Virus record (IMG/VR): IMGVR_UViG_3300024279_000007
Span: 676 to 64,675 of that record
From: a virus
Direction: 5' to 3' (one strand)
DNA: 64,000 nt
Shown: positions 539-64,000 of the stretch, in pieces
Position numbering within the stretch: position 1 is the stretch's first letter
Layout: each line of letters begins with the position of its first letter
Position numbers and translations under genes: made by a program
Notes under the pieces: model-generated
What the model was told of the DNA's origin: nothing
Database searches by the model: none
The model's input: only the letters and a program-made list of their open reading frames with translations

Positions 539-949
539 ATGACACACCATGAACTGCGCTATCTGCTGCAAAAAATGTTTCCCGACTCCGTATATGGACA
601 GGATTATTTCACTGGACACTATCTGGACAAAGACGGGAACGGTGCGGAACAGGTGGGTGAAGCCTTCATCCTCAAGTGGAAGCTGCCCGCGCCGCAACCT
701 TCTGAAGCCCAGCTACAGGCGTGGTGGGGCGGTCACCAGAAGGAAGTCCTAGCGACGATGAAGGCCGACCACATGCGCTGGCAACGCAGCACTAAGCTGG
801 CGGAAGCGGACATTCTGGTGGAGAAGGCCAAGGACCGGGGCGACGCCGAAGCTGAACAGAAGGCCCGCACATACCGGCAGGCGCTGCGCGACGTGACACT
901 CCAGCCGGGGTTTCCTGACACGTTCGACTGGCCGGAGATTCCGACATGA
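539..949 (+). CDS. Tail fibre assembly chaperone (XkdW/Tfa-like)
   Basis: C-terminal YRQALRD..QPGFP...WP signature of phage tail-assembly chaperones; follows the fibre gene. Confidence 0.85.
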   Translation: MTHHELRYLLQKMFPDSVYGQDYFTGHYLDKDGNGAEQVGEAFILKWKLPAPQPSEAQLQAWWGGHQKEVLATMKADHMRWQRSTKLAEADILVEKAKDRGDAEAEQKARTYRQALRDVTLQPGFPDTFDWPEIPT

Positions 950-1347
950 TCACCATGCACCAGCTATGGTTGTTGATGCAACGTGTTTATCCGGATAAGA
1001 CCCCCGGCAAGGATTTCATCATCGCTGCGCCTGTGAATCCGGATAACCCTACTGAACAGGGAGAAGACGCGTCCATCGCATTCTGGGCCGGACCTGAACC
1101 GGTGCCGAACATCAAGGCGCTGCTGGGCATGTACGGCAGCGAGATAGACGACATACAGCAGCGAACGATGGGGCGCTTCACACGCAACAGGCTGCTGGGT
1201 GAATCGGATTCGCTGGTCACGGCTGAAGACACACCACACCAGAAGGCGGTCGCCAAGTACCGGCAGGCACTGAGAGACGTGCCACAACAACCGGGTTTTC
1301 CAACCGATATCAAATGGCCGGTCAAGCCGGTACTCAAGGAAGAATGA
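946..1347 (+). CDS. Second tail fibre assembly chaperone (paralogue)
   Basis: Same YRQALRDVPQQPGFP..IKWP motif; ATGA overlap with the previous gene. Confidence 0.85.
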   Translation: MITMHQLWLLMQRVYPDKTPGKDFIIAAPVNPDNPTEQGEDASIAFWAGPEPVPNIKALLGMYGSEIDDIQQRTMGRFTRNRLLGESDSLVTAEDTPHQKAVAKYRQALRDVPQQPGFPTDIKWPVKPVLKEE

Positions 1348-1505
1348 TGGATTACGAACTACGTCTCTCTCAGGATCAGGTGCGTCTGATTATCGGCGCA
1401 CTGGCTGAACTGCCCTACAAGATGGCTGCGCCTACCGTTACCCGCATTCTTGAACAGACGGACGCGCAGGAGAAGATAGCCGCCGACAAGCAGAGCGTGG
1501 CCTAA
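1344..1505 (+). CDS. Small hypothetical protein (53 aa)
   Basis: ATGA-coupled to upstream gene, AAGGAAG RBS, helical sequence MMDYELRLSQDQVRLIIGALAELPY. Confidence 0.65.
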   Translation: MMDYELRLSQDQVRLIIGALAELPYKMAAPTVTRILEQTDAQEKIAADKQSVA

Positions 1506-1548
1506 CCCGTCCGGGGCAAAGCACCCCGGCCCCAAGAGGGCTACACAG

Positions 1549-1764
1549 ATGGCTGAACTGGATGATGTGTATAAACGGATCAACGAGAACTCGGTGGACA
1601 TAGCAGTCATAAAAACATGGCGGCAAAGCGTGGACGACAAGCTGGACACGTTTGTGACCCGCATTGAGTTCAATCTGGTAAAGATCATCGTTTACGGTCT
1701 AAGCGGCACGATCCTCATGAGCGTACTGGTAGCTCTCCTTTCAAAGGTGGTAGTGAAATCATGA
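1549..1764 (+). CDS. Small membrane protein at the start of the lysis cassette (holin/antiholin-like)
   Basis: Charged N-terminus plus one C-terminal TM helix; GAGG RBS. Confidence 0.65.
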   Translation: MAELDDVYKRINENSVDIAVIKTWRQSVDDKLDTFVTRIEFNLVKIIVYGLSGTILMSVLVALLSKVVVKS

Positions 1765-2096
1765 GAACGTTCATTAGTACATGGCGGCACGTGATATTCG
1801 GCGGCGGGTATGTTGTTGTGCTCGCAACCAGTACCGCCGCGCTGGGCTACTCATACATCACCGGAGCGATCAATGAAGCAGGACGCGGCACACGATCAGA
1901 AAACCTACCTTCTTACGATCAGAACGGGGTATTTCGCGGTGATTGCGCTTTTCGCAGCCATCGCGGTTCTGTGCGTAGGTGTGACGGGGATTTACTTCGG
2001 CTCGAAACAGCAGGCCGACAAGGATCGGGAGACGCTGCTGGCGGCACGGACCGAACTGAAGGATCAGCAACTGGCCTACGAAAAAAGGCTGGGTGA
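1761..2096 (+). CDS. Possible membrane protein overlapping the next gene in another frame
   Basis: ATGA coupling to the upstream stop and an N-terminal hydrophobic segment; C-terminal part looks like off-frame sequence. Confidence 0.35.
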   Translation: MRTFISTWRHVIFGGGYVVVLATSTAALGYSYITGAINEAGRGTRSENLPSYDQNGVFRGDCAFRSHRGSVRRCDGDLLRLETAGRQGSGDAAGGTDRTEGSATGLRKKAG

Positions 2097-3808: not shown

Positions 3809-4993
3809 ATGGCCGGACTGGTGAACGACGCCACGGGTCAATCCACCCCATACAACGCGGCACAGGCTACGACAACGAACGCCACGGCTGGACAGGCTAC
3901 GTCAACGGACGCCAAGGCTACCGGCTATGACGCCGCGCAGTCGCAGGCCGCGCAGTATCAGGCAACCACGGGCAACGCCGCGAAAGCGAATCTGGCCACG
4001 AACACCATTGACAACAGTCAGACGGTGGCGGGTCAACTGAAGGGGCTGATAGACGATAACAGCCCGCTGCTGCAACAGGCCCGCGCACAGGCACTGGCCA
4101 ACGCCAACTCCCGTGGTCTGCTGAACAGCAGCATGGCAGAGACCGGCGCACAGTCGGCGGTGCTGTCACAGGCCATGCCGATTGCACAGCAGGACGCGTC
4201 TACGAATTTCACCAATAACACCAATAACACCAACGCGACGAACCAGAACAGCCAGTACAACGCGACGAACGAACAGGACATGACGAAGACCAATCTGGGC
4301 CTCGTCAACAACGCCAGTCAGTTCAACGCGGGCAATCAGCAGCAGACCAATCTGTCGAACCAGTCAGCCACGAATCAGGCTGAACAGTTCGGCGCGGCAG
4401 CAGGGAACGCCGCATCGTCGCAGAACGCGCAGCAGGCCACGCAGACCAGCCAGTTCAACGCTGGACAGCAGACTTCGGTCAACCAGTCGAATGCGTCTGC
4501 CGCGAACAGCAACAGCCAGTTCAACGCCCAGCAGTCAAACGCCGCGCAGCAACAGGCAGCGGACAACGACTTCAAGGCGTATCTGGACACGCAGGACAAC
4601 AACACGAAAATCCAGCTTCAGGCGATGGACAGCGCGAACAAGACGCAACTGGCGCAGATTCAGGCGCAGTACCAGCAGGCCATGCAGTCCAGCCAGTCGG
4701 CCAATGCGATCTACACGCAGTCCCAGCAGCAGATCAGCGCCATCATGTCGAACAAGGATATGGACCCCGGTGCGAAGCAGAAGGCGGTTGACCAGCAACT
4801 GGCGATGCTGCGCTCGGGTATGGCGGTCGCGGGCAGCGTGGCGTCCGTGGACCTCGGCACGCTCCTAAATTTTGACGCAGGGGGTTCGGCGGCTACTCCC
4901 TTCTCTGGTATCGCGCCGCCACCCCCGCCGCCACCCGTATTTACTCCTGAACAGGGGTACGACTACAACAACGGCTATAACAACCGGCACTGA
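3809..4993 (+). CDS. Internal virion / DNA pilot protein
   Basis: Q/N/A/T-rich with repeated SQFNA motifs; first gene of the ejection cluster. Confidence 0.6.
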   Translation: MAGLVNDATGQSTPYNAAQATTTNATAGQATSTDAKATGYDAAQSQAAQYQATTGNAAKANLATNTIDNSQTVAGQLKGLIDDNSPLLQQARAQALANANSRGLLNSSMAETGAQSAVLSQAMPIAQQDASTNFTNNTNNTNATNQNSQYNATNEQDMTKTNLGLVNNASQFNAGNQQQTNLSNQSATNQAEQFGAAAGNAASSQNAQQATQTSQFNAGQQTSVNQSNASAANSNSQFNAQQSNAAQQQAADNDFKAYLDTQDNNTKIQLQAMDSANKTQLAQIQAQYQQAMQSSQSANAIYTQSQQQISAIMSNKDMDPGAKQKAVDQQLAMLRSGMAVAGSVASVDLGTLLNFDAGGSAATPFSGIAPPPPPPPVFTPEQGYDYNNGYNNRH

Positions 4994-5001
4994 GGCTGAA
5001 C

Positions 5002-5088
5002 ATGAACTGGATCACGGAACTGTCCACGGCAGCACTGAAACTGTCCATTGCGTATCTCGCTGCGACACTGGCAAGGCACCTTTCGTAA
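5002..5088 (+). CDS. 28-aa micro-ORF (MNWITELSTAALKLSIAYLAATLARHLS)
   Basis: GAGG RBS; fills the gap exactly, stop abuts the next ATG; below the ORF-track cutoff. Confidence 0.45.
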   Translation: MNWITELSTAALKLSIAYLAATLARHLS

Positions 5089-8522: not shown

Positions 8523-11500
8523 ATGGCCGCTAACCCGTTCGAACAGGTGAACGTCCCGCCGCTTCCGGACACGATGCCCGATACCAGCATGCCGGTCGGC
8601 AATCCCGCGCACCCGGCTGAAGCGAATCCGTTTGCTTCATCCGACATGCAGATGGTGCAGGATGACAGCCCGAATCCGTTCGCGGCACCGGACATGATCG
8701 AAGCACCGAAGAAGCCTGTCCAGCAGTCGGGTGCCATCATGGCAGGCGTGCGCAGCGCAATCCCCGGTTTGCAGGAACAGCTTGGGGAAGCGGAAAGCTA
8801 CGGTGGCCGTGCGGCACGGCAGGCTGGCTACAACCAGATTGCCGACTGGCTGGAGTCGCACAGCAAGTCCAACCTCGATGAAGTCAAGGCTGGACAGGAC
8901 GCGAGCAACACACTGCCCGCTGACGCTGGTCTCGGCTCGCGCGCCGCCTACGGGATTGCGCAGGGCATCGGCCAGACTGCCGTGGTGGGTGGTGGCGGTT
9001 TCGCAGCCGGTGCTCTCGCGGGTGGCGCAGCCGGTGCCGCGTTCGGTGGTGTCGGCGCGATTCCCGGTGCCATCGCGGGTGGCCTGCTGGGTTGGACCAT
9101 CGCCAACGTGGGCGCGCTCCCGGCACTGATGGGCTTCTCGCAGGCAGGCCGCACGGCCAGCGCTGTGGCTGACCAGAAGCAGAAAGAAGGCCTGTCGGCT
9201 GAACAGGCCAATGCACAGGGTCTGGAAGCGGGCGCGGTCACCGGCACGGCGGCAGGCGCGCAGGGCGCTGTCCTCGGGCTGCTGGGTCCGCTCGGCAAGG
9301 TGGTCGGCAAGGCCAAGGCTGGCTCGGTGGTGGAGTCGGCACTGAACGCCACGGCTGGCTCGATTGCCAAGGACACTGCCAAGGCAGCGGCAGTCGGCGC
9401 GGCAGGCAACGTTGCCGTCACGGCAGCAGCGCAGGGCGTGGAACAGCAGTATGGTGTCGGTGACGGTATCTCGGGTGAATCGTTGCTCGAATCCGGCCTG
9501 ATCGGCGCGGGCATGACGGGGCTGATGCACGGTCCCGCGCAGTACGCCCGCACGTCGAAACTCCGCAGCGCAACCGGCCCGCTCGCGGACCCGACCGCTT
9601 CCGTCGAAGACCGGCAGCGCGCCGCCGCCGCAGCGGTCGCAGCCATCGCCACGCGCGACACGCAACTCGCGCAGGACTTCGGCATCTACTCCGCTGTCCA
9701 GATCGCGAAGGGTCTGCCGGTGGACGTGACCGCCGACCATGCCTACACCGCGTTCGCACAGGACGCAAAGGACAAGGCTGACCGTTATGCCAAGGCGGTC
9801 GCTGGACAGGTGACAGGCGAGAAGCAGCCCGGTAACGGCAACAGCTTCGTACCGGGTCAGGGCGACCGCACGTTCGGCGCGGCACCGGAAGACAACAGCC
9901 TTCGCCCGACTGGCGCAGACACGTCCATGCAGGGGCAGGATATCAACCGCCCGATGCCGGACAACCTCGATGTGCGCGGGATCATTGAGCGTGAGGCTCC
10001 CCCGGTCGCACCAACACCAATCGACCCGAACGACCCGCAGGGCACGCTGAACGCCATCCATGAGTCCAACGTCGCTGACGATGCGTTCCTCGACCGCGCG
10101 CTGGCCGCAGCCCATGAGACGGGCGTGCTCACGCCGGAAGCAGCGGAAGCCCCGCTGTCGCCGGAAGCCCTGCGTCCTGACCAGCAGTTCTACAACGACC
10201 AGCGCGATCAGGCTGGCCGCGACGTGGCCTTCCAGCAGGCTGAACAGCAACAGGGTACACCGCCCGCCGTGCCGGACGATGCGTTCGCCCAGCGGCAGGC
10301 CGCGCTCGCGGCAGAGGCCGACCGGCTGCGCCAGCAGGGTCACGTGGCGGGTGTCTACGATCAGGCCATGAACGCGCCCGACCGGGCCGCTGCGGAAGGG
10401 CAGTCCCGTGCCGACGCCTACACGGCTGAACAGGCGGCACGCCGTCAGGCCGCGCATGAGGCATCGGTCGCACAGGACACCAGCGAGACGGCAGCGCGGG
10501 TGGCCGGTGAAGGTGCTGAACAGCCGACCGCGATGGCACAGGCGCTGCAACGCGCGGGCGTGCGTCCGGCTGAACAGGGGAACGCCCCGGCACGGCCAGC
10601 GGAGACGCCTGCGGAAAAGGCGCAACTGTCGCGCCTTGGTCACCGCAACCCCGCGAGCCTTCGCACGGACGAACTCGGTCGGCTGGTGGAGTCGCACCCC
10701 GATCCGGCAGTCCGCGCCGCTGCACAGGCGGTGCTCGGGGTACGCCGCAACCGCGCCATCGCGGAAACCCCCGATTCTACTGTTCAGCACACCGGGGAAA
10801 TGACCGGCAATCAGGATTTCCGCCGTCCGGGACCGGTCAACGATGAAGCGGGGATTGAATTTTCCCGCCAGCGGCGCGAATCCGGGGCTGCTGACGGGCT
10901 GGAGACGCCCCGGACGCCCGAAGGTAGCGCCCCGGTCGAAGCAGCCCCGGAAATCGCCCCGCTGAAGCGTGCGCTGGACGCCGATGCGGTCAAGGCGGGT
11001 GAGAAGTCGGCGGGTGACTTCGAACACGTCACGCGTGACAGCCTGCCTGAACAGCGCACGGCGGTAGAGAACGGTGTGAAGGGTGCCACTACCCTGTCGA
11101 AGTCGGATTACGATCTGGTCACGAAGCAGGCCGACCTGTTCAACAAGAAAGTCGTGCTGTTCAGGCAGCGCAACGGTCGGCCCGGTGAACGGCTGGACGG
11201 CGCGGTGCTCCCGGAAGACGGCAACACGATCTACCTGAACGCGGACGCGGCGGGCGCTCACCATATGGTGGTGGTCGGCCACGAACTGGCGCACCAGATG
11301 GAGAAGGACGCGCCGCAGGTGTACAAGGCGCTGAAGGATGCGCTGTCCTCGCAGACCAAGGGTGGGCTTGAACGGTTCACGCAGTATTACGGTGAGACGG
11401 GCAACCTGAAGAACCCGAAGTTTCGCAGCCGCATGACCCATGAGTTCATTGCCGATCTGGTGGGTAACCGGGCCGGTGAACTGAACACGTGGCGTCAGGT

Positions 11501-14500
11501 GTTTGCGAGCGTGGACAAGGGCAACCGGAGCATGGTCTACCGGCTGGCGGATTATGTGTCCCGTTTCATCGGCAAGCTGATGAACAACGAGAAGTTCAGG
11601 AAGTTCGCCACCGATGACATGGTGAACAGCCTGAACGACACGCGCACTGCGGTGCGTCGTGCGCTCGCGGATTACGCCAGTTCGCAGGGCATGGCCCGTA
11701 TGCAGCATGAGGCTGAACAGCTTCGTGCCGCGAAGGCCAATCGTGGTGAAGAAGGTCCAAAGCTGGTGGAGCCGGTCAGGTCAGACCGTGTGGTGCATGA
11801 TAGACTTACAGATCGGCTGCATGACCGCGCTTCCCCTGAACAGGTGAAGCCGCGTGAACCGGAGCCGACACAGGGCACGCAGCGCATGGAGCAAAGCGGT
11901 ACGCCCCGCACTGAACGTGTCCGCGAATCTGGAGAACGCGATGAAAGGACCACAACGGCAGGACAACAGAACGAAGGAACAGGCGCTGGCAGAACTGCAC
12001 CGGGAAATGGAAGTCGGGATGAGCCAACAGCCAGACCAGACGGACGGCTTGAACTCACCCACTGGTCAGGCAAAGCCGGTCTCCAAGACCTCGACCCCGC
12101 CAAGCACGGCACCGGCCTCAAAGGCGCAGAGCTAAAGCGGCGCGACCGTGACCCGGACAGCTACGTCAACCGGACGTATTTCGGACTGAACGTGGGTGAA
12201 CCGGGCGGGTACGTGAAGGAGTCCGGGCTTGGCCAGCACAAGTACACGACCTCGGTTGAACCGTCGAAGCTGTACGACATTGGCGCTGACCCTGCCGGAC
12301 TGTATCCGAAGGGTGATATCGGCCCGTATGCCGACCGACTCTCGATGTATGAGAAGGCGATCAGGGATGCAGGCTATCAGGGTTACTGGACAGCACACCC
12401 TTCAATGGGCAAAGTTGCGGCAGTGTTTGACAAGCTGCCGGTGGAGCATGCAAATGAAAGGACCACGCAAACCGCAGAACCAGCGCTCGCAAGATCAGCA
12501 GAGCGCAACGAAGAACGAGCCGCCGTTGAACAGACCGCCCGCGAACCAGCAGCACTGGGACGACGTGACGGCGGAACTGAAGGCGAAGTACCCGGATACA
12601 CCCGACGCAGCTTGGGAAGCGATGGGAATGTAACGGTCAACGGTCGCACGGTCAAAGGTGAACAGGTCAGCCCGACACCTGAACGCCGTGCGGCACTTCA
12701 GGCTCGCGGAGTCAGTTCGCCTGACTACGTGCAAGTCTCTGGCAAGGAAGGCGCACAGGCTTTCCACGACGCCATCCTCGAATCAAAGATGCAGAACCCC
12801 CACGGGGCCTCTGTCCACGTCTACACGCCGGAAGAATACGCAGAGATGCGCACCTTCCTGACCGACGACGGCAAGGCAGGGGTGGCCATCAAGCCGGACG
12901 GCGATATCGTCTCGGTGTTCAACACGCCCGGTAGCGGCATCAAGGGTCTGACGGTCTCGGCACTCGACCTCGCTGTCCAGCATGGCGGTACGAAGCTGGA
13001 CGCCTTCGACACGGTACTCCCACACCTGTATGCGAAGTCCGGCTTCAAGGCTGTGGCGCGCATGCACTGGAATGACGAGTACAGCCCGGAAGGCTGGGAC
13101 AAGGGGCAGTTCGAACAGCACAACGGCGGCGAGCCTGACGTGGTGTTCATGGCCCACGATCCTGAAGGCGTGGCTGACTACCAGCCGGGTGACGGCAAGC
13201 TGGTCACCGACTACGATGAAGGCGTGCGCTTGCAGGACGAAGCTGTTCAGGATGCTCACCCGTCCGAAGGGGAAGCAGGCACCGCCAACCCGCTGTCCAG
13301 CGAACCCTCGGTGCGCCGGTCAGGGGAACGGGCTAACTACCTCGGCCCGATGGACCCGGCACAGGAAGCCTCGGCCCGTGCGGTCGGCATGTTCGCCCCG
13401 AAGAAGACCTACAAACAGGTCATGCAGGAAGCCAGCAAAGACCTCGGCAAGAAACTCCAGCAGGGTATCGCTGACCAGTTCGCGCCGATCCGGGAACTGG
13501 ACGAGAAGGCTTACTGGCTGTCGCGGCTGTCCAAGGGTTCGGACGGCGCACTTGAGGCAGCGCTGCTGTATGGCGCACCTGTGATCCGCGATGGCGTCTA
13601 TGACGTGGACGTGCATGGCAAGGGCTTTGCGAAGATCATGGCCGATCTGGACGGCGAGCATAACCGTTTCCTGCTGTGGGAAGCGGCGCATCGCGCGGAA
13701 GACCTGAAGGCGGAAGGCCGGGAGAACCTGTTCACTGATCAGGATATCTCGGCACTGAAGACCCTCGACCAGCCGGACGCCATGCACCCGAACCGCGCGC
13801 AGAAGTTTGCGCAGGCGCGGCGCGAGTATCGTGACTTCAATGAAGCGATGCTCAAGATCGCACGGGACTCCGGGATTCTCTCGGATGAAGACTACAGGCT
13901 GTTCAGGGATCAGGCCTATGTACCGTTCTACCGCGTCATGGAAGGGGGCGACGCGGCGGTCCCCGGTGGCGGCAAGTCAGCGGGGCTGGTCAACCAGTAT
14001 GCGTTCAAGAAACTGAAGGGGGGCACGTCCAAGCTGAACGAAGACCTTCTGGTCAACGTGCTGGGTAACTACTCGCACCTGCTGGGCGCAGCAGCCCGCA
14101 ACCGCGCCGCCAAGGCAACGATGGATGCAGCGGAAGCCGCTGGCATCGCACATCAGGTTCCGGCAGCGGCGGCAGGCAAGGGCAGCGTGGCCGTCCGCGA
14201 TGGTGGCAAGGAAGTGCACTACTACATAGACGATCCGCACCTGCTGGCGGCGGTGTCGGCCATGAGTCGGCAGGTACCCGGCTGGATGAAACCGCTGTCC
14301 ACGTTCAAGCGCGTGCTCACGCATGCGGTGACAACGATGCCGGGTTTCAAGGTCCGCAACCTGATCCGTGACTCGATCAGTGCGCTGGCTGTGGGCGACC
14401 TCTCCCCGAACATCGCGAAGAATCTGGTGGAAGGGGCGAAGGGTACGTCGAAGAAGTCCCAGACCTACGCGTCAATGCTGGCCTCGGGCGGCATCATCCG

Positions 14501-20723: not shown

Positions 20724-21227
20724 TCATGACAGGAACTTCTTGCGGTCGGGTTTGGCGGGCTGGACATTGAAGCCGACGTTCATGCGGGCCTCAAGATTCC
20801 GGCTCTGCATGGCCAGCTTGTAGCCGGACTGGAAGCCGACCCATGCAGCCTGCGTCTTGCGGTCGAAGAAGCTGCCGCTGGCCGTCGCCGTGGTGTCCAT
20901 GCCGTCACGTTCCGCCATCCACAGGAACGTCCGGCGCTGGTCCTTCAGGTCTTCTTCCTTCAGTGGGTCCGGTTTCGCGGCATCAAGCCGGACTGTCGCC
21001 GCCTTGTTCAGCCCGTCACGCAGGCCCTTGATCACGGTCGCCGGATGCACGTCGTTATCCAGTTGCTGGCGGGCCATTTCCACGGTGTCCAGCAGAATAT
21101 TGGCTTCACGCATGTAGGCTGTGGACCAGCGCCCGATGATCATGCACTCTTTCAGCCATACCAGCCGGGACCGGTCGGACTCGCTCGCCAGTTCGATCAG
21201 CTTTATGCGTTCATCGTGATCAGACAT
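20724..21227 (-). CDS. Hypothetical protein
   Basis: RBS GGAG; coupled ORF. Confidence 0.65.
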   Translation of the reverse strand: MSDHDERIKLIELASESDRSRLVWLKECMIIGRWSTAYMREANILLDTVEMARQQLDNDVHPATVIKGLRDGLNKAATVRLDAAKPDPLKEEDLKDQRRTFLWMAERDGMDTTATASGSFFDRKTQAAWVGFQSGYKLAMQSRNLEARMNVGFNVQPAKPDRKKFLS

Positions 21228-21732
21228 GGCTGGTCTCCGGGACGTACAGGCGCGGGCACAGGTTACCGGGCAGATACAGCGGGTGGGCCGGTGAGCCGTC
21301 CTTGTTCAGCTTGAGTGCGTAGAGGTTGTACTGCTTGCTGATGGCACTGACCACAGTGCGCGCGTGGCGCTTGATGCCGGGGTGCAGCGAGCCGTGGCCC
21401 ACGATGATCTTCGTGCTGCCCTTGGCCCCGGCCACGGCGCGCTCGACGTGGACCAGCAGATCAGCGCTGGCCTGCCGGACGAGCCACGAATACATCAGCA
21501 TGGGTTCAGTGGCGCGAAAGCCGACGAGATTGATCAGGCGCACGCCGTCATAATTCCAGTAACGGGCGTAGGCCATGCAGCGTTTGGTGGTGGGATCGTC
21601 TGACTCCGAGTCAGCGGTGCTCGGGTTCAGAAGCAGGAAAGTGCAAATGCTTGGCGTCAGCGTTTCCGACCATACGCGTTGCAATTCCCAACGCATACGC
21701 CGGTCATCCGACAGGATGGCGGTGCGTAACAT
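21220..21732 (-). CDS. DUF1643 family protein
   Basis: R.ELQRVW...FLLLNPSTAD...DDPT..RC..YA..W.Y.G..LINL..FRATEP...P.HPLY signature. Confidence 0.9.
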   Translation of the reverse strand: MLRTAILSDDRRMRWELQRVWSETLTPSICTFLLLNPSTADSESDDPTTKRCMAYARYWNYDGVRLINLVGFRATEPMLMYSWLVRQASADLLVHVERAVAGAKGSTKIIVGHGSLHPGIKRHARTVVSAISKQYNLYALKLNKDGSPAHPLYLPGNLCPRLYVPETSHV

Positions 21733-21803
21733 TTTTTGTTCTCCAGCTTGAGAGAGTGTGCTGCTGACCGCAGCATATACTGCGGCCATGCAAAAGTCTA
21801 GTG

Positions 21804-22358
21804 TTATTCAGACAACTGCGATGTGGCAAAGCTGGCGTCGCGGCCATTCACTACTGCACCCGGCTGCGGGTCCGTCCCCCATTCATTCAGGTATTCGCGC
21901 CAGTACACCTTGCCGCCCGGTGCGTAGAAGCCCCAGTCCTGTACCCACGGACCCATGATAAACATGGTGGCGGTCTGTTCAGTAGTACTGATTTCCACGA
22001 TCTTGTGCCGGTCGGTGGCACGCCGGTAGATCACGTCGCCCGGTCGGCGCACGAAGTCTTCAAACAGGGTGTCGTCCAGTTCCGGGGACTGGTCCTGACT
22101 CTCGGGCATGCGCTCCACGAAGTAGCCGGACAGCACCACGCTGATCGACTCGGCGGGGTGATCGTGCAGGTGCCGGTCCACGTCAGCCGACTGGTAGACG
22201 TGCACGCGGGCCGACAGCTTCTGTTCAACCGCGTCTTTCGGGTTCGGTGTGACCCAGTAGCGCTGCTGGTAGCCGCGCAGGTGAAAGTACGGCGTCAGGG
22301 TGGCACGCTTGATCAGAATGTCAGCGAGCGATCCGAGAGGGGGCTTGCGCAGGCTCAT
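21804..22358 (-). CDS. Cupin-fold protein
   Basis: RVH......DRHLHDHP...SVVLSG...E and later RRATDRHKI...TMFIMGP metal-binding cupin motifs. Confidence 0.75.
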   Translation of the reverse strand: MSLRKPPLGSLADILIKRATLTPYFHLRGYQQRYWVTPNPKDAVEQKLSARVHVYQSADVDRHLHDHPAESISVVLSGYFVERMPESQDQSPELDDTLFEDFVRRPGDVIYRRATDRHKIVEISTTEQTATMFIMGPWVQDWGFYAPGGKVYWREYLNEWGTDPQPGAVVNGRDASFATSQLSE

Positions 22359-43595: not shown

Positions 43596-43790
43596 ATGGA
43601 AGACTGGCAGCAGCGTGTGAAAGACGAGCATGCAGACCTGACCGTGAAGCTGCACAAACTGAAAGCGTTCCTGTGTGGCAAGGGCGTTGAAGCGCTGACG
43701 CCACGAACCAAGCGCCTGATGATCAAACAGCGCGATGCAATGGAAGACTATTGCTGGGTGCTGGCCGAACGTATCAAGGACTTCACATGA
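43596..43790 (+). CDS. Small coiled-coil phage protein
   Basis: WQQRV..E...L..KL.KL.AFL pattern common in phage genomes. Confidence 0.7.
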   Translation: MEDWQQRVKDEHADLTVKLHKLKAFLCGKGVEALTPRTKRLMIKQRDAMEDYCWVLAERIKDFT

Positions 43791-44371
43791 ACAACATAAG
43801 ATTCATTCTCTCTGATCTGCCTGTCCAGCCGTTACTCGCTGCAATAGATGAAGCATGGTGGGATGAAATCACCATACGGCAGAGCTATCCCGGTTCGCAC
43901 CACAGGGATACACAGTGCATCTTCCTGCGTGGACCGCGCACCTTCCTGAACTTCTTCGACACCACAGCGCAGGACTATCCGCGTCTGGGCGAACTGATGC
44001 CGGTGCTGATGCCGGTCGTGGCACCGCTGCTGAACAAGCTGGGCACGCCACAGGATGCCATCGGTCGTGTGATGCTGGTCAAGCTGCGACCACATGGCCA
44101 TGTCCAGACCCACACCGATACCGGACCGTATGCCGATGCGTTCACGCGCCATCACATCGTGCTGTCCAGCAATGTGGGATGCCGGTACACCTGTGGCGAC
44201 ACGATGGAGCGCGACATATACGCAGGCACCGCCTTCTGGTTCGATCATCACAAACCCCATTCAGCCGATAACCACGGGCCAACGGATCGCGTTCACCTGA
44301 TTGTGGACACGCTGGCGGCAACGTCAGCCGATCCCACGGTCAACTGGAGCGAACTGTGTCCGAAGCACTAA
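43787..44371 (+). CDS. Aspartyl/asparaginyl beta-hydroxylase-like 2OG-Fe(II) oxygenase
   Basis: RVMLVKL.PHGHVQTHTD (HxD), RHHIVL, FWFDHHKPHSADN...DRVHLIVD. Confidence 0.85.
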   Translation: MNNIRFILSDLPVQPLLAAIDEAWWDEITIRQSYPGSHHRDTQCIFLRGPRTFLNFFDTTAQDYPRLGELMPVLMPVVAPLLNKLGTPQDAIGRVMLVKLRPHGHVQTHTDTGPYADAFTRHHIVLSSNVGCRYTCGDTMERDIYAGTAFWFDHHKPHSADNHGPTDRVHLIVDTLAATSADPTVNWSELCPKH

Positions 44372-54084: not shown

Positions 54085-55281
54085 ATGCGTTCCAAGCTGA
54101 ACGGAATTATCAGTTCGAAAAGAGGCGCAAAACGCGCCATCGCCATCGGGGACTCGATCACCGCGATGGACGCAGTACAGGCTGGCTCGGGACTCTGGAC
54201 ACAGGGTAACGGCTGGTTTGAACAGGCCATCCGGACTGGCTATGACGGTCCCTTCGCGTTCGTCCGCAATGCAGGCGTCGCAGGCAACACGGCGCAGCAG
54301 ATGCTGGCCCGGCTGGACACGGACGTACTGGCCTACGCGCCGGACGTGGTGTTCATCATGGCGGGCACCAACAACATTCTCACGGGCGCAACGAACACCG
54401 ACTACGCGAACTGCATGAACGCCATCGAACAGATGGTGCTGCGCTGTCTGGTGTCCGGCATTGATGTGGTGCTCTCGACGCCGCCTGCCAAGGATGGCGC
54501 GAAGCTGGAAATGAACAAGGCCATTCCGCTCTACTTCCGGCTCGCGCAGCACTACGGTATTCCGCTGATCGACGCGCACCGTGCGACGGTGGACCCAGTG
54601 ACGGGCGGCTACCGCGCTGGCCTGTCCGATGACGGCACGCACCCGAATCAGGCCGGTATCAAGGAAATCATGGTTGAGTGGCAGTCGGTCATCCAGCAAG
54701 GTTTTCAGGACGTGTTCCGTGCCCGCGTGGCAGAGACCTCGGCGGGTTCGATCACGAACTACATTCGCAACGGCAACTTCGTGAAGAACACGTCGCCGCC
54801 CGCGATGGACAACTGGACAGTCAACACGACCGGCGCGACGTTCACGCAGGACACGACGGGTCTGGGTGGTCCATTTCACCTGTCCGGCAAGCAGTTCGAC
54901 TACGTGAAGACGGCGGCAGGCGGCGCGTATGCGCTGTACGGCACGGACGCTGACTCGGGCTACGCGGACGGCGACACGCTGGTGTTCAGCGGTCTGTTCG
55001 GCTGCACGTCGCTCGCAGCTTCCCCGAACGGCTACACGATGCTGTTGCAGTTCGGCAGCGCGGACAGCGTGCGCCCGTACAACACGACCAAAAAGGTGCA
55101 GGGCGCGCTGGAGTCGTTCAGTCAGGAGTTCGTGGTGCCGACCGGCTACGCGGGCGTGAACGCACTGCTGCCGCAACTGTTTGTTCAGGACGTGGGCACC
55201 TACCTCGTCGCTGAACTGACGCTGTGGAACAAGACGAAGTACGACGCAATCTGGAAGCCGGGTGCGCTTCTGAACGTCTAA
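54085..55281 (+). CDS. SGNH/GDSL esterase with C-terminal beta-sandwich domain
   Basis: GDSIT, GVAGNT, AGTNN and DGTHPN blocks. Confidence 0.9.
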   Translation: MRSKLNGIISSKRGAKRAIAIGDSITAMDAVQAGSGLWTQGNGWFEQAIRTGYDGPFAFVRNAGVAGNTAQQMLARLDTDVLAYAPDVVFIMAGTNNILTGATNTDYANCMNAIEQMVLRCLVSGIDVVLSTPPAKDGAKLEMNKAIPLYFRLAQHYGIPLIDAHRATVDPVTGGYRAGLSDDGTHPNQAGIKEIMVEWQSVIQQGFQDVFRARVAETSAGSITNYIRNGNFVKNTSPPAMDNWTVNTTGATFTQDTTGLGGPFHLSGKQFDYVKTAAGGAYALYGTDADSGYADGDTLVFSGLFGCTSLAASPNGYTMLLQFGSADSVRPYNTTKKVQGALESFSQEFVVPTGYAGVNALLPQLFVQDVGTYLVAELTLWNKTKYDAIWKPGALLNV

Positions 55282-55291: not shown

Positions 55292-55391
55292 GTTAGTGAC
55301 GTTAGTGACGTTTCTGAATCAAAAATCAATTTTCTCTATATGTACGTCTAGGGAAAACTGAAAAAGAGGATAGAAACGTCACAAACGTCAC
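55292..55391. repeat. Second copy of the iteron-like element
   Basis: GTTAGTGACGTTAGTGACGTTT identical to 33206-33227; AT-rich spacer; inverted pair at 55375 and 55384. Confidence 0.85.
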
Positions 55392-55428
55392 TGCCCTTCT
55401 CTCCCCCTGAACGAAACGGAGTTTCATC

Positions 55429-56814
55429 ATGACCGACGACGCAACGAACGCGGTACCGCCCGCTGCACCTATCCCCGCCGCGCCCGCTGCCAACTCAGTG
55501 GAGTCCAGCGATGCACAAGTCACACAGCAAGTCAGCGACCCGGCACCGGATGCAACGGCAGTACCGGTCGATGCAGCACCGCCTGCCCCCGTCCAACCCG
55601 TGGACAGCGCTCCTGCACCGGATGCTGGGACTGTTCCCGCCGATCCTGTAGTGGGAAACGATGCACCCACACCGCCCGCTGGCGATGCTACGCCTGTGGC
55701 TGGTGACCCGGCACCGGCTGATCCGGTTCCCGCACCTGTGGCAGAAGCACCGGCCCCGGTCGAAGCAGCACCGGCCCCGGTCGATCCGGCTCCCGTAGCC
55801 GAAGCACCGGCCCCGGAACCGGCTGTTGACCCGGCACCCGTGACAGAACAACCCGCCCCGGTCGATCCGGCTCCTGTGGCAGAAGCCCCGGCCCCGGAAC
55901 CGGCACCGGAACCGGCTACACCCGTGGTGGAAGCCCCGGCACCGGAAGCCCCGCCCGCAGCAACGGAACCGGCTGCGCCTGCCGCTCCCGTCGATTCAGC
56001 GCCCACTGGAGCACCGGAAGGCAGCGACGGCACCACGCCCCCGGATTCCAGCGCAAACGGCATTCCCGATGCACCCGCCCCGGTCGATCCGGTTCCTGCG
56101 CCGGAAGTGCCTGTACCTGAACAGCCTGCACCGGAAGTCCCTGTTCAGCCTGTACCTGAACAGCCTGTGCCGGAAGTGCCGGTTGTTGCGCCGCTGCCCG
56201 ACATGCCCGCACCGACGGTACCCGCCGACACCACGCCGGTCAGCAACCCGGCCCCCACGGCGGAAGTCACGTCTACGGACTTCACGGTTGCAGCCAACGC
56301 GATTGACTCGATGGCGGCACTGTTCGCAGCCATGTCGGACGCGAGCAAGGCACTGCATCAGGTGGGCCGCTTGCAGGAAACGCTGAACGACCGGCAGAAC
56401 CAGTTGAACGATCTGGATTCGCAGATCGCGCAGAAGCAGGCGAAGCTGGATGCACTCACGCAGGACGTGCTGAACGCCCGCGACTACGCTGTCAAGCTGG
56501 TCACGGCTGCGTCCACCAGCACCGAAGACGCCGTGAATCAGGCGAACGATACCGCGCAGCAACTGGTGGCCAAGGCGGCAGCGACGAACGCGAGCGCCCA
56601 GAAGCAACTGGACGACATGCTTCAGCAGGGTCAGGCCCAGATCAACGCATGGCGCGCGGAAGCCACGGCTGATGCGACCGCGCTCAACGCCGATCTGGAC
56701 ACCAAGCGTGCCGAACTCCAGTGGGTGACGGATGAACTGGCCCGCGAGCAAGCCAAGCTGGACGAAGTAAAGGCTCAACTCGCGAAGATCAACACGGACG
56801 GCGCAACGTCCTAA
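55429..56814 (+). CDS. Pro/Ala-rich repeat protein with C-terminal coiled coil
   Basis: APAPVE/DPAPVAEAPAP repeats, then ~170 aa of heptads; GGAG RBS. Confidence 0.8.
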   Translation: MTDDATNAVPPAAPIPAAPAANSVESSDAQVTQQVSDPAPDATAVPVDAAPPAPVQPVDSAPAPDAGTVPADPVVGNDAPTPPAGDATPVAGDPAPADPVPAPVAEAPAPVEAAPAPVDPAPVAEAPAPEPAVDPAPVTEQPAPVDPAPVAEAPAPEPAPEPATPVVEAPAPEAPPAATEPAAPAAPVDSAPTGAPEGSDGTTPPDSSANGIPDAPAPVDPVPAPEVPVPEQPAPEVPVQPVPEQPVPEVPVVAPLPDMPAPTVPADTTPVSNPAPTAEVTSTDFTVAANAIDSMAALFAAMSDASKALHQVGRLQETLNDRQNQLNDLDSQIAQKQAKLDALTQDVLNARDYAVKLVTAASTSTEDAVNQANDTAQQLVAKAAATNASAQKQLDDMLQQGQAQINAWRAEATADATALNADLDTKRAELQWVTDELAREQAKLDEVKAQLAKINTDGATS

Positions 56815-58519: not shown

Positions 58520-59494
58520 ATGTCCGACGTGAATGCAAACGCAGCAACGAACGCCGACGAAGGCAAGACCGCAGCGCAAATCTGGGCCGAAGAATCTGCT
58601 GGACAGCAGACGACGCCGCTCGCCGACGCACCTGCACCGACGCCCGCACCGGCACCCGAAGCAGCAGTACCCACACCTGCACCAGCCCCCGCCCCGGCAC
58701 CTTCGCCTGCACCCGCAGCCGATGATCCTTATGCCGGTCTGCACCCCGCTGTTGTCCAGCGGCTGCGCGGATTGGACGGACTGGAGCAACGCCTGCGCAA
58801 AAGCGAAGGCACCATCGGTAATCTGAACAGTCAGTTGACGGGCCTGAAAGACGAGAACTCTCGTATGAAGACGGCTCTGGAGCAACGCGCCTCGACCGCA
58901 GCAGCGGGTGGCTCGGCTCCTACCGCAGCGGCGGTGACAGCGGCTGGAAAGAATAGCGAGAAGTGGGCAGCGCTGAAAGAGGAATTTCCCGAATGGGCGG
59001 AAGCGGTGGAAGAAAGATTGGCCGGTCAGCCTTCGCAGGCACCCGTCGATCTGGACAGCCTGCGCACGCAGATTCGGGATGAACTCACGGGCGAACTGAC
59101 CGGCAGGATCACGGCTGATGTTCAGGCCGCGACCGAAGACCGTCTGGTCAACGTTGCACACCGGGGCTGGAAAGATCTGGTGAAGACGCAGCAGTTCGCG
59201 GACTGGATGAAGGCACAACCTTCAGAAGTTCAGGCACTGGGCGCAAGCCCGGTCGCGGAAGACGCAATTGCGCTACTGGACAACTTCAAGGACTGGCAAC
59301 GCGCGCAGCCTGCGCCTGTCGATCCGCAAAAGGTGGCCGCTGAACGCAAGCAACGCCTTCAAGACGCAGCATCTTTGGTGCGTGGTGGCAACTCGCAGCA
59401 GCCGATCAAGTCCCCCGATGACATGTCCGCAGAAGAACTGTGGGCGTATGAAGCGGCGCAGCTTGAACGGCAGAAGCAGGGGCAACGACGCTAG
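58520..59494 (+). CDS. Capsid scaffolding protein
   Basis: Acidic, Pro-rich then coiled; typical position upstream of the capsid gene. Confidence 0.75.
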   Translation: MSDVNANAATNADEGKTAAQIWAEESAGQQTTPLADAPAPTPAPAPEAAVPTPAPAPAPAPSPAPAADDPYAGLHPAVVQRLRGLDGLEQRLRKSEGTIGNLNSQLTGLKDENSRMKTALEQRASTAAAGGSAPTAAAVTAAGKNSEKWAALKEEFPEWAEAVEERLAGQPSQAPVDLDSLRTQIRDELTGELTGRITADVQAATEDRLVNVAHRGWKDLVKTQQFADWMKAQPSEVQALGASPVAEDAIALLDNFKDWQRAQPAPVDPQKVAAERKQRLQDAASLVRGGNSQQPIKSPDDMSAEELWAYEAAQLERQKQGQRR

Positions 59495-61552: not shown

Positions 61553-61575
61553 TTAGATATTCTGGAGAAAGCAGC

Positions 61576-62235
61576 ATGAGCAACCATCCGAACGACCGCA
61601 ACAAGCCACAGGGTAACCTGAACAAGCCCGACCCGCTGGAGCGTGAACTGGTCAGCGGCACCGTCGCACCCGATGCGAACGCAGCCCGCGCCGCCGCTGA
61701 ACAGCTTGCCGCTGAACAGCTTGCCGCACAGGAGCGCGCGATCACCGGCAGAACGCAGCCGATGCTCAACCATGACCGGTTCGAAGCATCCGAACTGGAC
61801 ATTCCCGACTCAGGCCCGATTGGCCTCGACGAAATCCGTGCGAAGGCCCACTCCGAACTGGACAACGAAGCCGTGATGGCTGCTGGCAAGCTGACGGAAG
61901 CCGAAATTGCCTACGAAGTGTTCATGAACGAGAAGGTGATCATTCTGGTACACGAAAGCCCGAACGAGGAAGACCTCGCGGTGGTGTGCCCGATGGTCAA
62001 CGGCGTAAGCCAGCCTATCGTGCGCGGCTACCCGACGCCGGTCAAACGCAAGTACGTCGAAGTGCTGGCCCGCGCGAAGGAAACGAAGTACAAGCAGATT
62101 CAGGCCGACGCCAACGATCCTTCGTCGCTGAAGATGGTGCCGCGTACCGTGCTCGCGTACCCGTTCGCCATCGAACGCGACGACAACCCGAATGGCCGCG
62201 CGTGGCTGCGCGACATTATCCGTCAGCAAGGCTAA
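61576..62235 (+). CDS. Hypothetical structural-module protein
   Basis: GGAG RBS; FMNEKVII...VNGV...RG...VKRKYVEVLARAK. Confidence 0.7.
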   Translation: MSNHPNDRNKPQGNLNKPDPLERELVSGTVAPDANAARAAAEQLAAEQLAAQERAITGRTQPMLNHDRFEASELDIPDSGPIGLDEIRAKAHSELDNEAVMAAGKLTEAEIAYEVFMNEKVIILVHESPNEEDLAVVCPMVNGVSQPIVRGYPTPVKRKYVEVLARAKETKYKQIQADANDPSSLKMVPRTVLAYPFAIERDDNPNGRAWLRDIIRQQG

Positions 62236-62244
62236 GGGGCACGC

Positions 62245-62961
62245 ATGAACTTCGTTGATCTGGTGAACAATCTGCGCGTCGAATGCGGTGTGTCCGGCAC
62301 GACGCTGGCCTCTGTCCAGTCCCTCGGTGGTGAACTGCTGCGACTGAAGCAGTGGATCAGCGACGCGTGGTTCGAATTGCAGACTGAACGGGACGACTGG
62401 AAGTTCATGCGCAAAAGCATCAGCTTCGCTACTGTTGCCGGGACGCAGAACTACAGTCTGGCCACCATCAGTGCGCTGAACGGCGGCATGGACATTAACG
62501 TCTACAAGCGGGACTCGTTCAGTATCGACCCGCCCACGGACACCAACCGTTCGCAGGAACAGCCACTTGGCGTCATGTCGTGGGATCACTTCCGCAACAT
62601 GTACATCGTGGGCTACCCCGCGACCGACCCGACGCGCTGGCAGCGTCCGATGACGATGGCGATCAACGATGACAAGTCGATCTGGTTCGGCCCGACGCCG
62701 GACGCCATCTACACGATCCGTGGCGAGTGCTACGTGAATCCGCAGACCCTGACGGCTGACGCGGACGTGCCGACCATGCCCGCCAAGTACCACAAGGTGA
62801 TCGTGTACCGCGCAATGAAGAAGTACGCCGGTTACGAGTCGGCCAACGACGTGATGATCCGCGCGAAAAATGAAGGCGGCAGGCCTGAACTGACGCTGTT
62901 CAATGAACAGCTTCCGCAGGTGACTGTCGCGGGCGGTTTTGACGGGAACGAATGGGGCTGA
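62245..62961 (+). CDS. Head-tail adaptor
   Basis: W..LQ.E..DW.FM, FGPTPD..YTI, P.MPAKYH.VIVY.AM pattern; typical position. Confidence 0.75.
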   Translation: MNFVDLVNNLRVECGVSGTTLASVQSLGGELLRLKQWISDAWFELQTERDDWKFMRKSISFATVAGTQNYSLATISALNGGMDINVYKRDSFSIDPPTDTNRSQEQPLGVMSWDHFRNMYIVGYPATDPTRWQRPMTMAINDDKSIWFGPTPDAIYTIRGECYVNPQTLTADADVPTMPAKYHKVIVYRAMKKYAGYESANDVMIRAKNEGGRPELTLFNEQLPQVTVAGGFDGNEWG

Positions 62962-62962
62962 T

Positions 62963-64000
62963 ATGGCAAAAGACCCGAATGCGCTGGACACTCCTGACAC
63001 ACAGCAGTTCCTGCTGAAAGGTGGTGTTGATCAGGTCAGTCCAGCTATCAGTCTCGCCCCCGGTGTGTGCCGCGATGCCATCAATTTCGAGTGCAACGTG
63101 CTCGGTGGCTACGCGCGCATTGCCGGGTTCGAACGGTACGATGGCAGGCCAAGCCCCAGTGAACAGGCGTACTGGACACTCTCGGCCAACCCGATTGCCA
63201 CGATCAACGTGGCCAACACGATTACCGGCCAGACTTCCGGCGCAACTGCCGTGGTCGCGTTTGTGGTAACCAGTCCGTATGGTCTGGTACTCACGAAGCT
63301 GACCGGCACCTTCACCAACGGCGAGAACCTTCAGGTAGGTGGCGTAACCAAGGCGACGGCCATCGGTGCTGAACAGCGCAACGGTGCACCCGACTCGGCC
63401 TCGGATGCGAAGTACGCGAAGTACGCGGCAGACATTTTCCGGGCCGATATCCAGAAGGTTCCGGGTAGCGGGCGCGTGCTCGGTGTATGGATGTACAACG
63501 ATGTGAAGTACGCCTTTCGCAACAACGTCGGCGGCACCGCTGCGCTGATGTACAAGGCCACGTCAACCGGCTGGCAACTGGTGACCACGCCCGTGCTTGC
63601 AGCCGGTGGCCACTACGAGTTCGTGAACGCGAACTTCGGCGGCACGGCGGCACTGAAGAAAATGTTTGGCTGCGATGGCGCGAACAAGGCCTTCATGTTC
63701 GACGGCACCACGTTCACGCAGATCACGACGGGCATGGCGCTGGACACGCCGAACCACATCGAAGTCCACCGCAACATGCTGTTTCTCGCGTTCAAGGCGA
63801 GTCTCCAGCATTCCGCCGTGGGCGACCCGACCTCATGGAGCGTGGTGGTCGGTGCGGGTGAAATCGCGCTGGGCGACAACATCAACAGCATCAAGTCGTA
63901 CACGACCGGCACCACGGGTGGTGTGGCAACCGGCAACTCGGCACTGCTGATCCACACGAACAGCAGCACGCAGATTCTGTATGGCTCCCAGCCGTCTGAC
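62963..64000 (+). CDS. Tail tubular / nozzle protein (runs off the window)
   Basis: MAKDPN...LKGGVD...NFEC...GGY.RI.GFERYDG; frame open to the window end, so absent from the ORF track. Confidence 0.75.
   Translation, partial: MAKDPNALDTPDTQQFLLKGGVDQVSPAISLAPGVCRDAINFECNVLGGYARIAGFERYDGRPSPSEQAYWTLSANPIATINVANTITGQTSGATAVVAFVVTSPYGLVLTKLTGTFTNGENLQVGGVTKATAIGAEQRNGAPDSASDAKYAKYAADIFRADIQKVPGSGRVLGVWMYNDVKYAFRNNVGGTAALMYKATSTGWQLVTTPVLAAGGHYEFVNANFGGTAALKKMFGCDGANKAFMFDGTTFTQITTGMALDTPNHIEVHRNMLFLAFKASLQHSAVGDPTSWSVVVGAGEIALGDNINSIKSYTTGTTGGVATGNSALLIHTNSSTQILYGSQPSD

Follow-up and report, generated by a model that had tools for sequence, protein, structure and literature searches.

Why would a bacteriophage carry one eight-base word, in either orientation, all along its chromosome? 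The question is posed by a 64,000-nucleotide stretch of DNA (the window), bases 676-64675 of the 65,858-bp virus record IMGVR_UViG_3300024279_000007 (G000; 59.7% G+C), which represents a soil-metagenome podophage. The word is CTGRACAG, which reads CTGTYCAG on the complementary strand. Its 155 exact copies are spread over both strands and over coding as well as intergenic DNA, from the first at position 852 to the last at 63369-63376, with a mean gap of 408 bp and a frequency of about one per 420 bp. The explanation that we tentatively prefer is that this octamer is a dispersed, operator-like binding word for a conserved phage-encoded protein that is specific to the clade of phages to which G000 belongs.

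The octamer and its enrichment

The four sequences that the degenerate word comprises are present in 48 (CTGAACAG), 37 (CTGTTCAG), 45 (CTGGACAG) and 25 (CTGTCCAG) copies; about 4 copies in all are expected of independent bases, and 12.7 of a Markov-2 model. Among the octamers of the genome, its two words rank first by frequency and by over-representation. A first-pass annotation of the window, made from the letters alone, had arrived by hand at 145-150 copies against an expectation of about 4: the over-representation is confirmed, the expectation is borne out, and all of the coordinates that it gave as examples are octamer sites. The other twelve words of the form CTGNNCAG are present in 0-7 copies each, together 28 where 37 are expected. 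The 135 sites in coding DNA compare with 16.5 ± 3.3 when synonymous codons are shuffled within genes, with 5.7 ± 2.4 when codons are permuted, and with 40.8 ± 6.4 in a dicodon Markov chain that already includes the octamer's own dicodons; the highest value reached in any shuffle is 60. The first-pass annotation had proposed that the signal be given up if its enrichment vanished in codon- and dicodon-preserving shuffles, or if all CTGNNCAG variants were equally enriched. With the shuffles surpassed and the other twelve words not enriched, neither ground for giving it up exists.

These comparisons also dispose of a trivial origin. CTG and CAG are common codons, and a few octamers do arise from 15-bp coding repeats (for example at 56117-56163, in a Pro-rich repeat). 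However, the shuffles are surpassed by a wide margin and the sister words are not enriched; the stretch has been recovered from 9 sequencing runs in 9 studies, all of them of soil metagenomes, and independent JGI, ENA and Logan assemblies show the same enrichment. The probability that composition, codon or dicodon usage, peptide repeats or faulty assembly generated the signal is therefore next to nil.

The core of the octamer, TGRACA (positions 2-7), is strict, with G3 and C6 nearly invariant: variants at positions 3 and 6 number ~8 where 20 are expected. C1 and G8 are preferred but soft, variants there still being ~5-fold enriched; variants at positions 1, 7 and 8 are all enriched. The two central bases are, in six clade sequences, only AA (219 copies) or GA (200), every other center occurring 4-18 times, and the palindromic centers AT, TA, CG and GC show no enrichment. 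Intergenic copies have no strong preference in their flanking bases, which argues that the word is truly 8 bp long. Twenty of the 155 sites are non-coding and fall within the 7.5% of the window that is intergenic, at ~1.8 times the coding density.

A signal in double-stranded DNA

On the sense strand of genes, CTGRACAG and CTGTYCAG stand at 89:47, and the shuffles yield the same 2.1-2.7:1 ratio. Enrichment is thus ~20-fold on the sense and the antisense strand alike, and this equality excludes a signal that is read in RNA or in peptides. The octamer acts on double-stranded DNA, which supports the first-pass annotation in placing it on both strands and between genes and in proposing selection at the level of DNA. 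The annotation drew that proposal from sites built of codons that the genome seemed to use little elsewhere; the shuffles, and the codon comparisons with outgroups given below, point in this direction too. The octamer is as dense in late regions (2.2-2.7 per kb) as in the early region (2.4 per kb), and core, clade-specific and singleton genes do not differ in density either.

The sites of G000 are more evenly spaced than random ones (coefficient of variation of the gaps 0.79, P=0.0008), and pairs within 120 bp of each other are fewer than random. A start-to-start distance of 15 bp is favored, with 14 such pairs in 209 kb of clade DNA against ~0.8 expected. Nine of the 14 are potential hairpins of the form CTGTYCAG-N7-CTGRACAG (the inverted pair CTGTTCAG-N7-CTGAACAG at 33683-33705, + strand, is an example of this spacing), and several of these nine are homologous copies of one element.

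Codon alignments with outgroup sequences show how sites originate. Synonymous recoding is found, in which Ala-Glu-Gln changes from GCC-GAG-CAA to GCT-GAA-CAG and Ala-Val-Gln from GCG-GTG-CAG to GCT-GTC-CAG. Amino acid replacement is frequent as well (LNA to LNS, PER to PEQ, KEQ to SEQ), and the outgroup peptide differs at 48 of 50 lineage-specific sites. In a comparison with G001, a related phage described below, 44 of 95 alignable sites (46%) are common to the two genomes, where the baseline for all aligned octamers is 17.5%; retention is 2.6 times background. Many sites are common to three or four clade genomes, others are private, and about half turn over. Sites that differ between the two genomes by a single mismatch do so by many types of substitution, with no single class among them. 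Most likely, then, selection on the DNA itself maintains the octamer at its density of one copy in about 420 bp, and is strong enough to rewrite proteins.

Restriction to one phage clade

Relatives of G000 were found by searches with portal, capsid and small proteins. G001 (IMGVR_UViG_3300046690_000263) is a collinear genome of 63 kb, ~76% identical in nucleotide sequence in the aligned parts, and carries 123 octamers. Four further lineages (L404/405, L406, L407 and L411/412, all from contigs of 62-64 kb) have 1.4-2.1 octamers per kb, and small contigs (L323 and L408-410) have 0.8-1.6. For G000, G001 and the four lineages together the range is 1.4-2.4 sites per kb, or 9-15 times the Markov-2 expectation. 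The octamer is common to at least seven related phage lineages. L411 is the deepest branch of this clade (its SNF2 helicase is only 67% identical), and the octamer is constant across members that differ in G+C content (56-60%) and are deeply diverged.

Two complete sister phages, G002 and G003, have the same architecture as G000, with capsids 80-86% and portals ~63% identical, but contain 1 and 6 octamers. The octamer is not enriched in any of 35 other related loci of at least 12 kb, whose top octamers have z values of 4.7-8.7, compared with 11 for an 18-kb piece of G001 and 25-30 for whole octamer-bearing genomes. Palindromic top words that seemed to be specific to other lineages of relatives were discarded, as they vanish upon Markov correction (z 4.7-8.7). 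In G009, 15 dispersed copies of CTGAACAG occur, but this is not its top word. Searches of IMG/VR for loci with the primase returned only G001, and a scan of the same database for double octamers returned only coding 15-bp tandem repeats.

G001 has an octamer-free island of 4.9 kb (9474-14394; P about 0.003). It covers three tailspike/esterase genes that are 41-56% identical to their G000 counterparts, and probably represents recently imported receptor-binding genes that have yet to acquire the octamer; no donor of the island was found in IMG/VR. A word that spans an entire clade without changing, that sister phages lack and that is missing from the island favors a reader that travels with the phage.

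In one member of the clade, L406, the early region encodes (at 4744-5067) a 107-amino acid protein with a Histone_HNS (H-NS-like) domain.

The search for an octamer-rich host

The possibility that the word belongs to a host was pursued by a scan for three octamers separated by short gaps, in 185,579 prokaryotic genomes that each represent a different species. A 5-Mb genome with phage-like density is estimated to yield about eight matches. The scan returned 81 scattered matches and no dense genome, although modest, Chi-like enrichment would escape it. Among 401 Gammaproteobacteria-class genomes the maximum is ~0.19 sites per kb, compared with 2.4 in the phage. (This sample includes one unpublished genome, G059, on which no claim depends.)

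Three leads from these scans were rejected. Two genomes, G011 and G012, are 5-7-fold enriched relative to a reversed-word control but are merely rich in CTG and CAG: their octamer counts, 32 and 20, compare with Markov-2 expectations of 17 and 27. The third, G013, an uncultured Clostridia metagenome-assembled genome (CAMJIC01), owes its five matches to an element resembling repetitive extragenic palindromes (REPs). Many dispersed inverted pairs CTGTTCAG-N8-CTGAACAG, 16 bp from start to start, occur in G013 and are probably a hairpin element of the REP type or akin to miniature inverted-repeat transposable elements.

Conserved placements at regulatory positions

Two placements of the octamer are conserved within the clade. 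The first is in the early rightward promoter of a gene encoding a Cro-like protein. This σ70-like promoter, P_cro (TTGTCA-17-TACATT; 29381-29409, + strand), has a copy of CTGTTCAG at 29395-29402, in the spacer and one base removed from the -10 box. An octamer is found in the spacer ahead of the Cro-like gene in seven genomes (G000, G001, L404, L406, L407, L411 and L408), and is retained while the -35 box and the flanking sequence vary from one genome to the next. In L408 it is flipped and has moved toward the -35 box, but is still inside the spacer, which suggests a symmetric binder. At this position the sister phages G002 and G003 lack the octamer. The first-pass annotation had described an octamer that overlaps a -35 box; the overlap with a promoter holds, and its location has to be amended to the spacer, beside the -10 box.

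The second placement is directly upstream of the small terminase (TerS) gene (41266-42102, + strand), whose product has a core resembling Sf6 gp1 (residues 134-243). A triple site, CTGAACAG-N15-CTGTTCAG-N7-CTGAACAG, occupies 41204-41249 (+ strand), and its last two octamers can pair to form an 8-bp stem with a 7-nt loop. The triple is kept in five genomes, with a first gap of 7-15 nt and a rearranged order in L407, while its spacers have diverged. Together with its upstream DNA the terminase gene is the most octamer-dense region of both G000 and G001. Conservation of the octamers while the surrounding spacers diverge is a hallmark of protein-binding sites, and by this comparison of sequences both placements look like operators.

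Octamers are also built into four nearly identical ribosome-binding units of early genes on the - strand (37655-40343; individual units at 37669, 38167, 38692 and 40336), in which the word runs into the Shine-Dalgarno sequence (CTGAACAGGAGAACATCATG).

Two other conserved strings were noted in the neighborhood of the Cro-like gene. At 29826-29895 in the window and 54620-54690 in G001, a strong terminator hairpin follows the gene and is itself followed, ahead of the next gene of interest, that of a ribbon-helix-helix (RHH) protein, by a conserved block, GAAGCAGTATATCAT; this block may serve the RHH-primase operon as an octamer-independent promoter or operator. In the sister phages G002 and G003 a common string, GCCCTTAACA, immediately precedes the ATG start codon of the Cro-like gene. 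Of all octamers in G003, CCCTTAAC is the most strongly over-represented (9 copies against 0.3 expected), and it may be a word that the sister lineage uses, unusually, in regulation or in the initiation of translation.

Candidate readers

Gene presence was compared over 20 kb for which every long clade genome has data. Every octamer-bearing genome, the deepest branch L411 included, possesses five items that are absent from G002 and G003, or replaced there by a very different type: the RHH protein, the N-terminus of p30113, the 136-amino acid clade-specific protein w27549 (27549-27959, - strand), the 152-amino acid clade-specific protein p33355 (33355-33813, + strand; in all long octamer-bearing genomes) and the P4-family type of primase-helicase.

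The leading candidate is the 50-amino acid RHH protein (29953-30105, + strand), which is found in every octamer-bearing genome tested, down to the deepest branch L411, at 51-87% identity. An AlphaFold2 (AF2) model built from an 11-sequence alignment (pLDDT 88) has an extended segment at residues 8-15 and helices at residues 16-29 and 33-47. When this model was compared with 48,161 PDB chains by VIA-align, nearly all of the 50 matches listed were RHH proteins, with Z values of 3.7-5.8 and spanning residues 3-50. They include the RHH domain of PutA with operator DNA (5.8), ParD2 (5.8), pRN1 ORF56, the third-best structural match (5.2), Arc (5.0) and omega (4.8); NikR is also among them. With so small a domain, Z values are bound to be modest; the top Foldseek match is omega (TM 0.64), but with an E value of 1.3. 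The predicted structure thus confirms an RHH fold, an N-terminal strand followed by two helices. The core of the protein is nearly invariant across the clade, and the R/K-T-F/Y residues of its strand, which by inference face DNA, are kept even in homologues that are 41-59% identical. Distant homologues lie on octamer-rich contigs in all three cases that were fetched (P0020, P0021 and P0022; the most distant, P0023, was not in this set). It is established for MetJ (metbox) and omega (heptads) that a single RHH dimer recognizes a pseudo-symmetric 7-8-bp box. The arrangement of genes has a parallel as well: the gene of pRN1 ORF56 likewise precedes that of a primase-helicase (orf56/orf904; PMC2777425).

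The second candidate is the Cro-like helix-turn-helix (HTH) protein (29461-29799, + strand), the product of the first gene behind the octamer-bearing promoter and a natural autoregulator of it. Homologues that are 42-44% identical exist in the octamer-free sisters, and an HTH dimer would usually need more than 8 bp. The clade-specific protein p33355 attracted attention as a weak PD-(D/E)XK nuclease lead, which was abandoned: its atlas scores, 0.80-0.84, are at the level of chance, and the alignment has no clear catalytic D...(D/E)xK motif.

The first-pass annotation had nominated four DNA-binding proteins of the window for binding assays. Its GntR protein (19134) is rejected as the reader, being present in G000 only and absent from the equally octamer-rich G001. 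Its HTH protein (36784), like the Cro-like protein (29461), has a diverged counterpart in the octamer-free sisters; the Cro-like protein ranks as the second candidate. Its RHH protein (29953) stands as a candidate, present in all octamer-bearing genomes tested and in neither of the two octamer-free ones.

The primase-helicase and its own iterons

The RHH gene precedes that of a primase-helicase of the P4 family (AEP primase, PriCT-2, D5_N and SF3 helicase; 30412-33135, + strand), which is of a type specific to the clade: it scores 224 bits against TIGR01613, and its counterpart in G002 scores 16.6. This enzyme furnishes an explanation of its own, in which the octamer is a genome-wide iteron that is read by the enzyme's C-terminal origin-binding domain. 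The annotated type-1 origin repeat of P4, (C)TGTTCACC, matches CTGTTCAG at 7 of 8 bases, the G000 primase is a strong member of the P4 family, and the unrelated phages L218 and L225 have arrays of CCTGTTCAGG adjoining a Toprim-SF3 primase gene. However, each clade genome has a separate, classical set of iterons after its primase gene. In G000 these are direct and inverted copies of TAGTGACGTT around an AT-rich core in an origin-like element at 33170-33325; the iteron is ATGTGACGCAT in G001 (59020-59170), AGTGGCAC in L404, GTGTCTCA in L406 and GGGTGACGTT in L407. These words change along with the primase, which suggests that they co-evolve with its C-terminal domain, whereas the octamer is invariant and dispersed. 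Because each genome has its own co-varying iterons, the proposal that the C-terminal domain reads the octamer, rather than the GTGACGTT iterons, is largely refuted and must be considered very improbable. That domain also has no BLAST alignment to the origin-binding domain of P4; a single-sequence model of its 148 residues is unusable (pLDDT 50).

A second TAGTGACGTT element (55293-55395), abutted by an octamer (CTGTTCAG at 55285), lies 22 kb from the first, a pairing that recalls the ori and crr of P4. Local iteron arrays of the CTGAACAG/CTGTTCAG type were encountered in unrelated phages (L218, 2055-2323; L225, 4167-4427; L212, 8204-9781; L217, 4736-10331). Those of L218 and L225 sit between the Toprim-SF3 primase-helicase gene and a gene for a protein of 195-207 amino acids, and resemble the (C)TGTTCACC iterons of P4. 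The iterons of P4 are clustered in ori and crr; the octamer of the clade is dispersed and does not co-vary with the primase.

The phage and its genes

Gene calling yields about 72 genes for G000 and no tRNA gene was found in the window. The recognizable functions include packaging and head assembly (large and small terminase, portal and capsid), tail and lysis (SGNH/GDSL tailspike-like proteins, a 2,441-amino acid virion protein and lysozyme) and replication and recombination (family-A DNA polymerase, the AEP-PriCT2-D5N-SF3 primase-helicase and the SNF2 helicase). A DUF2800 PD-(D/E)XK exonuclease, an Enc34-type single-stranded DNA-binding protein, DUF932 and DUF1643 are also encoded. About 60 of the 74 called proteins were scanned against Pfam or PHROGs, the ~14 left out being mostly small; no integrase and no match to a methyltransferase family was recognized among those scanned. 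The nearest named phages are very remote (portal identity at most 36%), and the phages collection contains no near match to G000. Two unusual phage enzymes were noted: an Asp/Asn beta-hydroxylase-like protein (43751-44371), encoded between the terminase and portal genes and kept in all relatives, and a cupin resembling 'cysteine dioxygenase' (phrog_4786; 21804-22358), encoded among the early genes.

What reads the octamer?

The best reading of the octamer remains the one toward which the first-pass annotation leaned, a site of recognition by protein, and the evidence for it is the enrichment, the action at the level of DNA, the neutrality as to strand, the restriction to one clade, the two conserved regulatory placements and the co-occurrence with the RHH gene. 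In the mechanism that we tentatively prefer, one phage protein would bind the octamer as a classical operator in the P_cro spacer and before the packaging operon. At the ~150 other copies this protein would be loaded over the whole length of the phage chromosome, and would there mark or organize phage DNA as distinct from the DNA of the host. The roles that the first-pass annotation gave such a protein (coating, protecting, translocating or marking the genome) are conjectural. We infer from the sequences that a protein binds, which proteins are eligible and what purpose the dispersed copies may have, be it self-marking, chromosome organization, packaging choice or global switching. If the reader is a phage protein, the RHH dimer (29953-30105) has about an even chance of being it; the Cro-like protein (29461-29799) would be a considerably less probable choice, and some other clade-specific protein about as much so. 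The complete proposition, in which a clade of lytic phages labels the entire chromosome with a private 8-bp word that is read by its own RHH or Cro-like protein, is rather doubtful.

Several observations weigh against a phage-encoded RHH reader. The putative promoter region of the RHH gene (29800-29952) contains no octamer, which is unusual for an autoregulated RHH protein, and most octamers are isolated, whereas RHH proteins normally need at least two adjacent boxes. That late genes are as octamer-rich as early ones argues against a simple repressor or roadblock. Since all five clade-specific items co-occur with the octamer, presence and absence cannot single out one of them, and a conserved host protein is also a possible reader.

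The last of these thoughts can be given a definite form, in which the octamer is a signal that the host reads, such as a Chi-like attenuator of RecBCD or AddAB, an uptake-type signal or a site for a nucleoid protein, and by which the phage passes as self or protects its linear ends. Being dispersed, in both orientations, within coding DNA and, in G000, evenly spaced are traits of Chi and of the DNA uptake sequence (DUS) and uptake signal sequence (USS), and enrichment of Chi has been documented in phages that lack inhibitors of RecBCD (PMC3784561). The host scans nevertheless disclosed no genome at phage-like density, even if moderate enrichment would have escaped them, and sister phages from similar samples lack the octamer, as does the imported island of G001. 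Neither Chi nor an uptake signal would be predicted to occupy a conserved place in a promoter spacer, and the octamer stays unchanged across a clade of such varied G+C content and deep divergence; we regard a host signal as unlikely. Alternatively, the octamer might be the preferred template or cleavage word of a clade-specific enzyme, for example the AEP/PriCT-2 primase (as priming sites) or a sequence-selective junction resolvase or nickase such as p33355, and would then have to recur on both strands at short and regular distances. Uniform density in early and late regions and even spacing would suit such an enzyme, and the asymmetry of the central RA would suit a monomeric one; the clade has its own type of primase, primases of the pRN1 type are template-sequence-specific (PMC2777425), and p33355 is clade-specific, adjoins the origin-like element and has its weak PD-(D/E)XK leads. 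Set against these points are the missing catalytic motif and chance-level scores of p33355, the spacer site in P_cro and the TerS triple, which are left unexplained, and the tolerance of G001 for its 4.9-kb octamer-free island. The primases that we know of read only 3-5 nt, and this explanation, too, is improbable.

An entirely different view makes the abundance of the octamer a by-product of biased repair or conversion, as has been proposed for HIP1, or of the kind seen in very-short-patch (VSP) repair: a repair enzyme of the clade, for example DUF1643 (21220-21789), would convert near-cognates into the octamer. Sites do arise irrespective of their amino acid cost, imported DNA is devoid of them, a deficit exists of variants at positions 3 and 6 (~8 against 20 expected), and G000 and G001 encode DUF1643 while G002 and G003 lack it. 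However, changes at positions 1, 7 and 8 yield variants that are enriched rather than depleted, the single-mismatch differences between G000 and G001 comprise many substitution types, and sites are retained at 2.6 times background and at conserved regulatory positions. DUF1643 has no sequence match in the PDB, and no literature tying it to repair was found. We know of no mismatch repair that is specific for an 8-bp context, and regard a conversion drive as decidedly unlikely.

If a phage-encoded protein is indeed the reader, this would be a virus that labels its own DNA without chemical modification, and functions such as protection from nucleases, choice of DNA for packaging and global switching of transcription would be able to distinguish phage from host DNA. 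Evasion or direction of nucleases, selection of DNA for packaging and timing of expression might all be affected. The octamer is, in any case, a simple sequence marker for uncultured members of the clade and for DNA that has recently been imported into them. With one invariant word, about five candidates and octamer-free sisters as controls, the reader can be sought directly.

Comparison with known systems

Few functional words are spread over entire genomes (Chi, uptake sequences, KOPS, HIP1, stoperators), and each has revealed a machine that handles DNA. The literature searches found no description of this octamer, nor of a phage in which any octamer is enriched to a comparable degree. The stoperators that gp71 of L5 reads in the Cluster A mycobacteriophages, which are temperate, are 13 bp long, number ~24-36 per genome, are mostly intergenic and are oriented with transcription. 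The octamer resembles them as one short, asymmetric word that serves as a promoter operator and is repeated at many dispersed sites: it is present in the P_cro spacer of seven genomes and in ~150 dispersed copies. Stoperators of both kinds are read by one phage protein. It differs in being 8 bp long and present in ~155 copies, 135 of 155 in genes, in obeying no rule of orientation and in being equally dense in late genes; also unlike the temperate phages that have stoperators, G000 has no integrase among its scanned proteins. The operator boxes of RHH proteins (the 8-bp metbox of MetJ, the 7-bp heptads of omega, the sites of pRN1 ORF56) are likewise short and pseudo-symmetric, and tolerate either orientation. 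They form adjacent arrays at a few promoters, whereas the octamers are mostly isolated and genome-wide, with the RHH protein a candidate binder.

Chi is also an over-represented octamer in coding DNA that marks self, and phages can accumulate it (PMC3784561). Yet Chi is a word of the host, enriched a few-fold, read on a single strand and skewed with replication, while the octamer is enriched 9-15-fold over Markov-2, strand-neutral and pseudo-palindromic, with both orientations equally enriched and so no Chi-type skew. The DUS of Neisseria and the USS of Pasteurellaceae resemble it in their density of ~1 copy per kb, in occurring in both orientations, in preferring certain frames and peptides, and in having inverted pairs with the potential for hairpins. 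Their bearers are competent bacteria, among which biased uptake spreads them; no enriched host at phage-like density is found among 185,579 species. We know of no comparable uptake-type drive for a lytic phage. HIP1 of the cyanobacteria (GCGATCGC) is the same kind of extreme, lineage-specific over-representation of one octamer, but it is a perfect palindrome of cellular genomes and is linked to a methyltransferase, whereas the center of the phage octamer is only RA or TY and the G000 proteins that were scanned include no methyltransferase. The octamer is clearly one of the functional words that act genome-wide, yet it lacks defining features of each of the closest known kinds.

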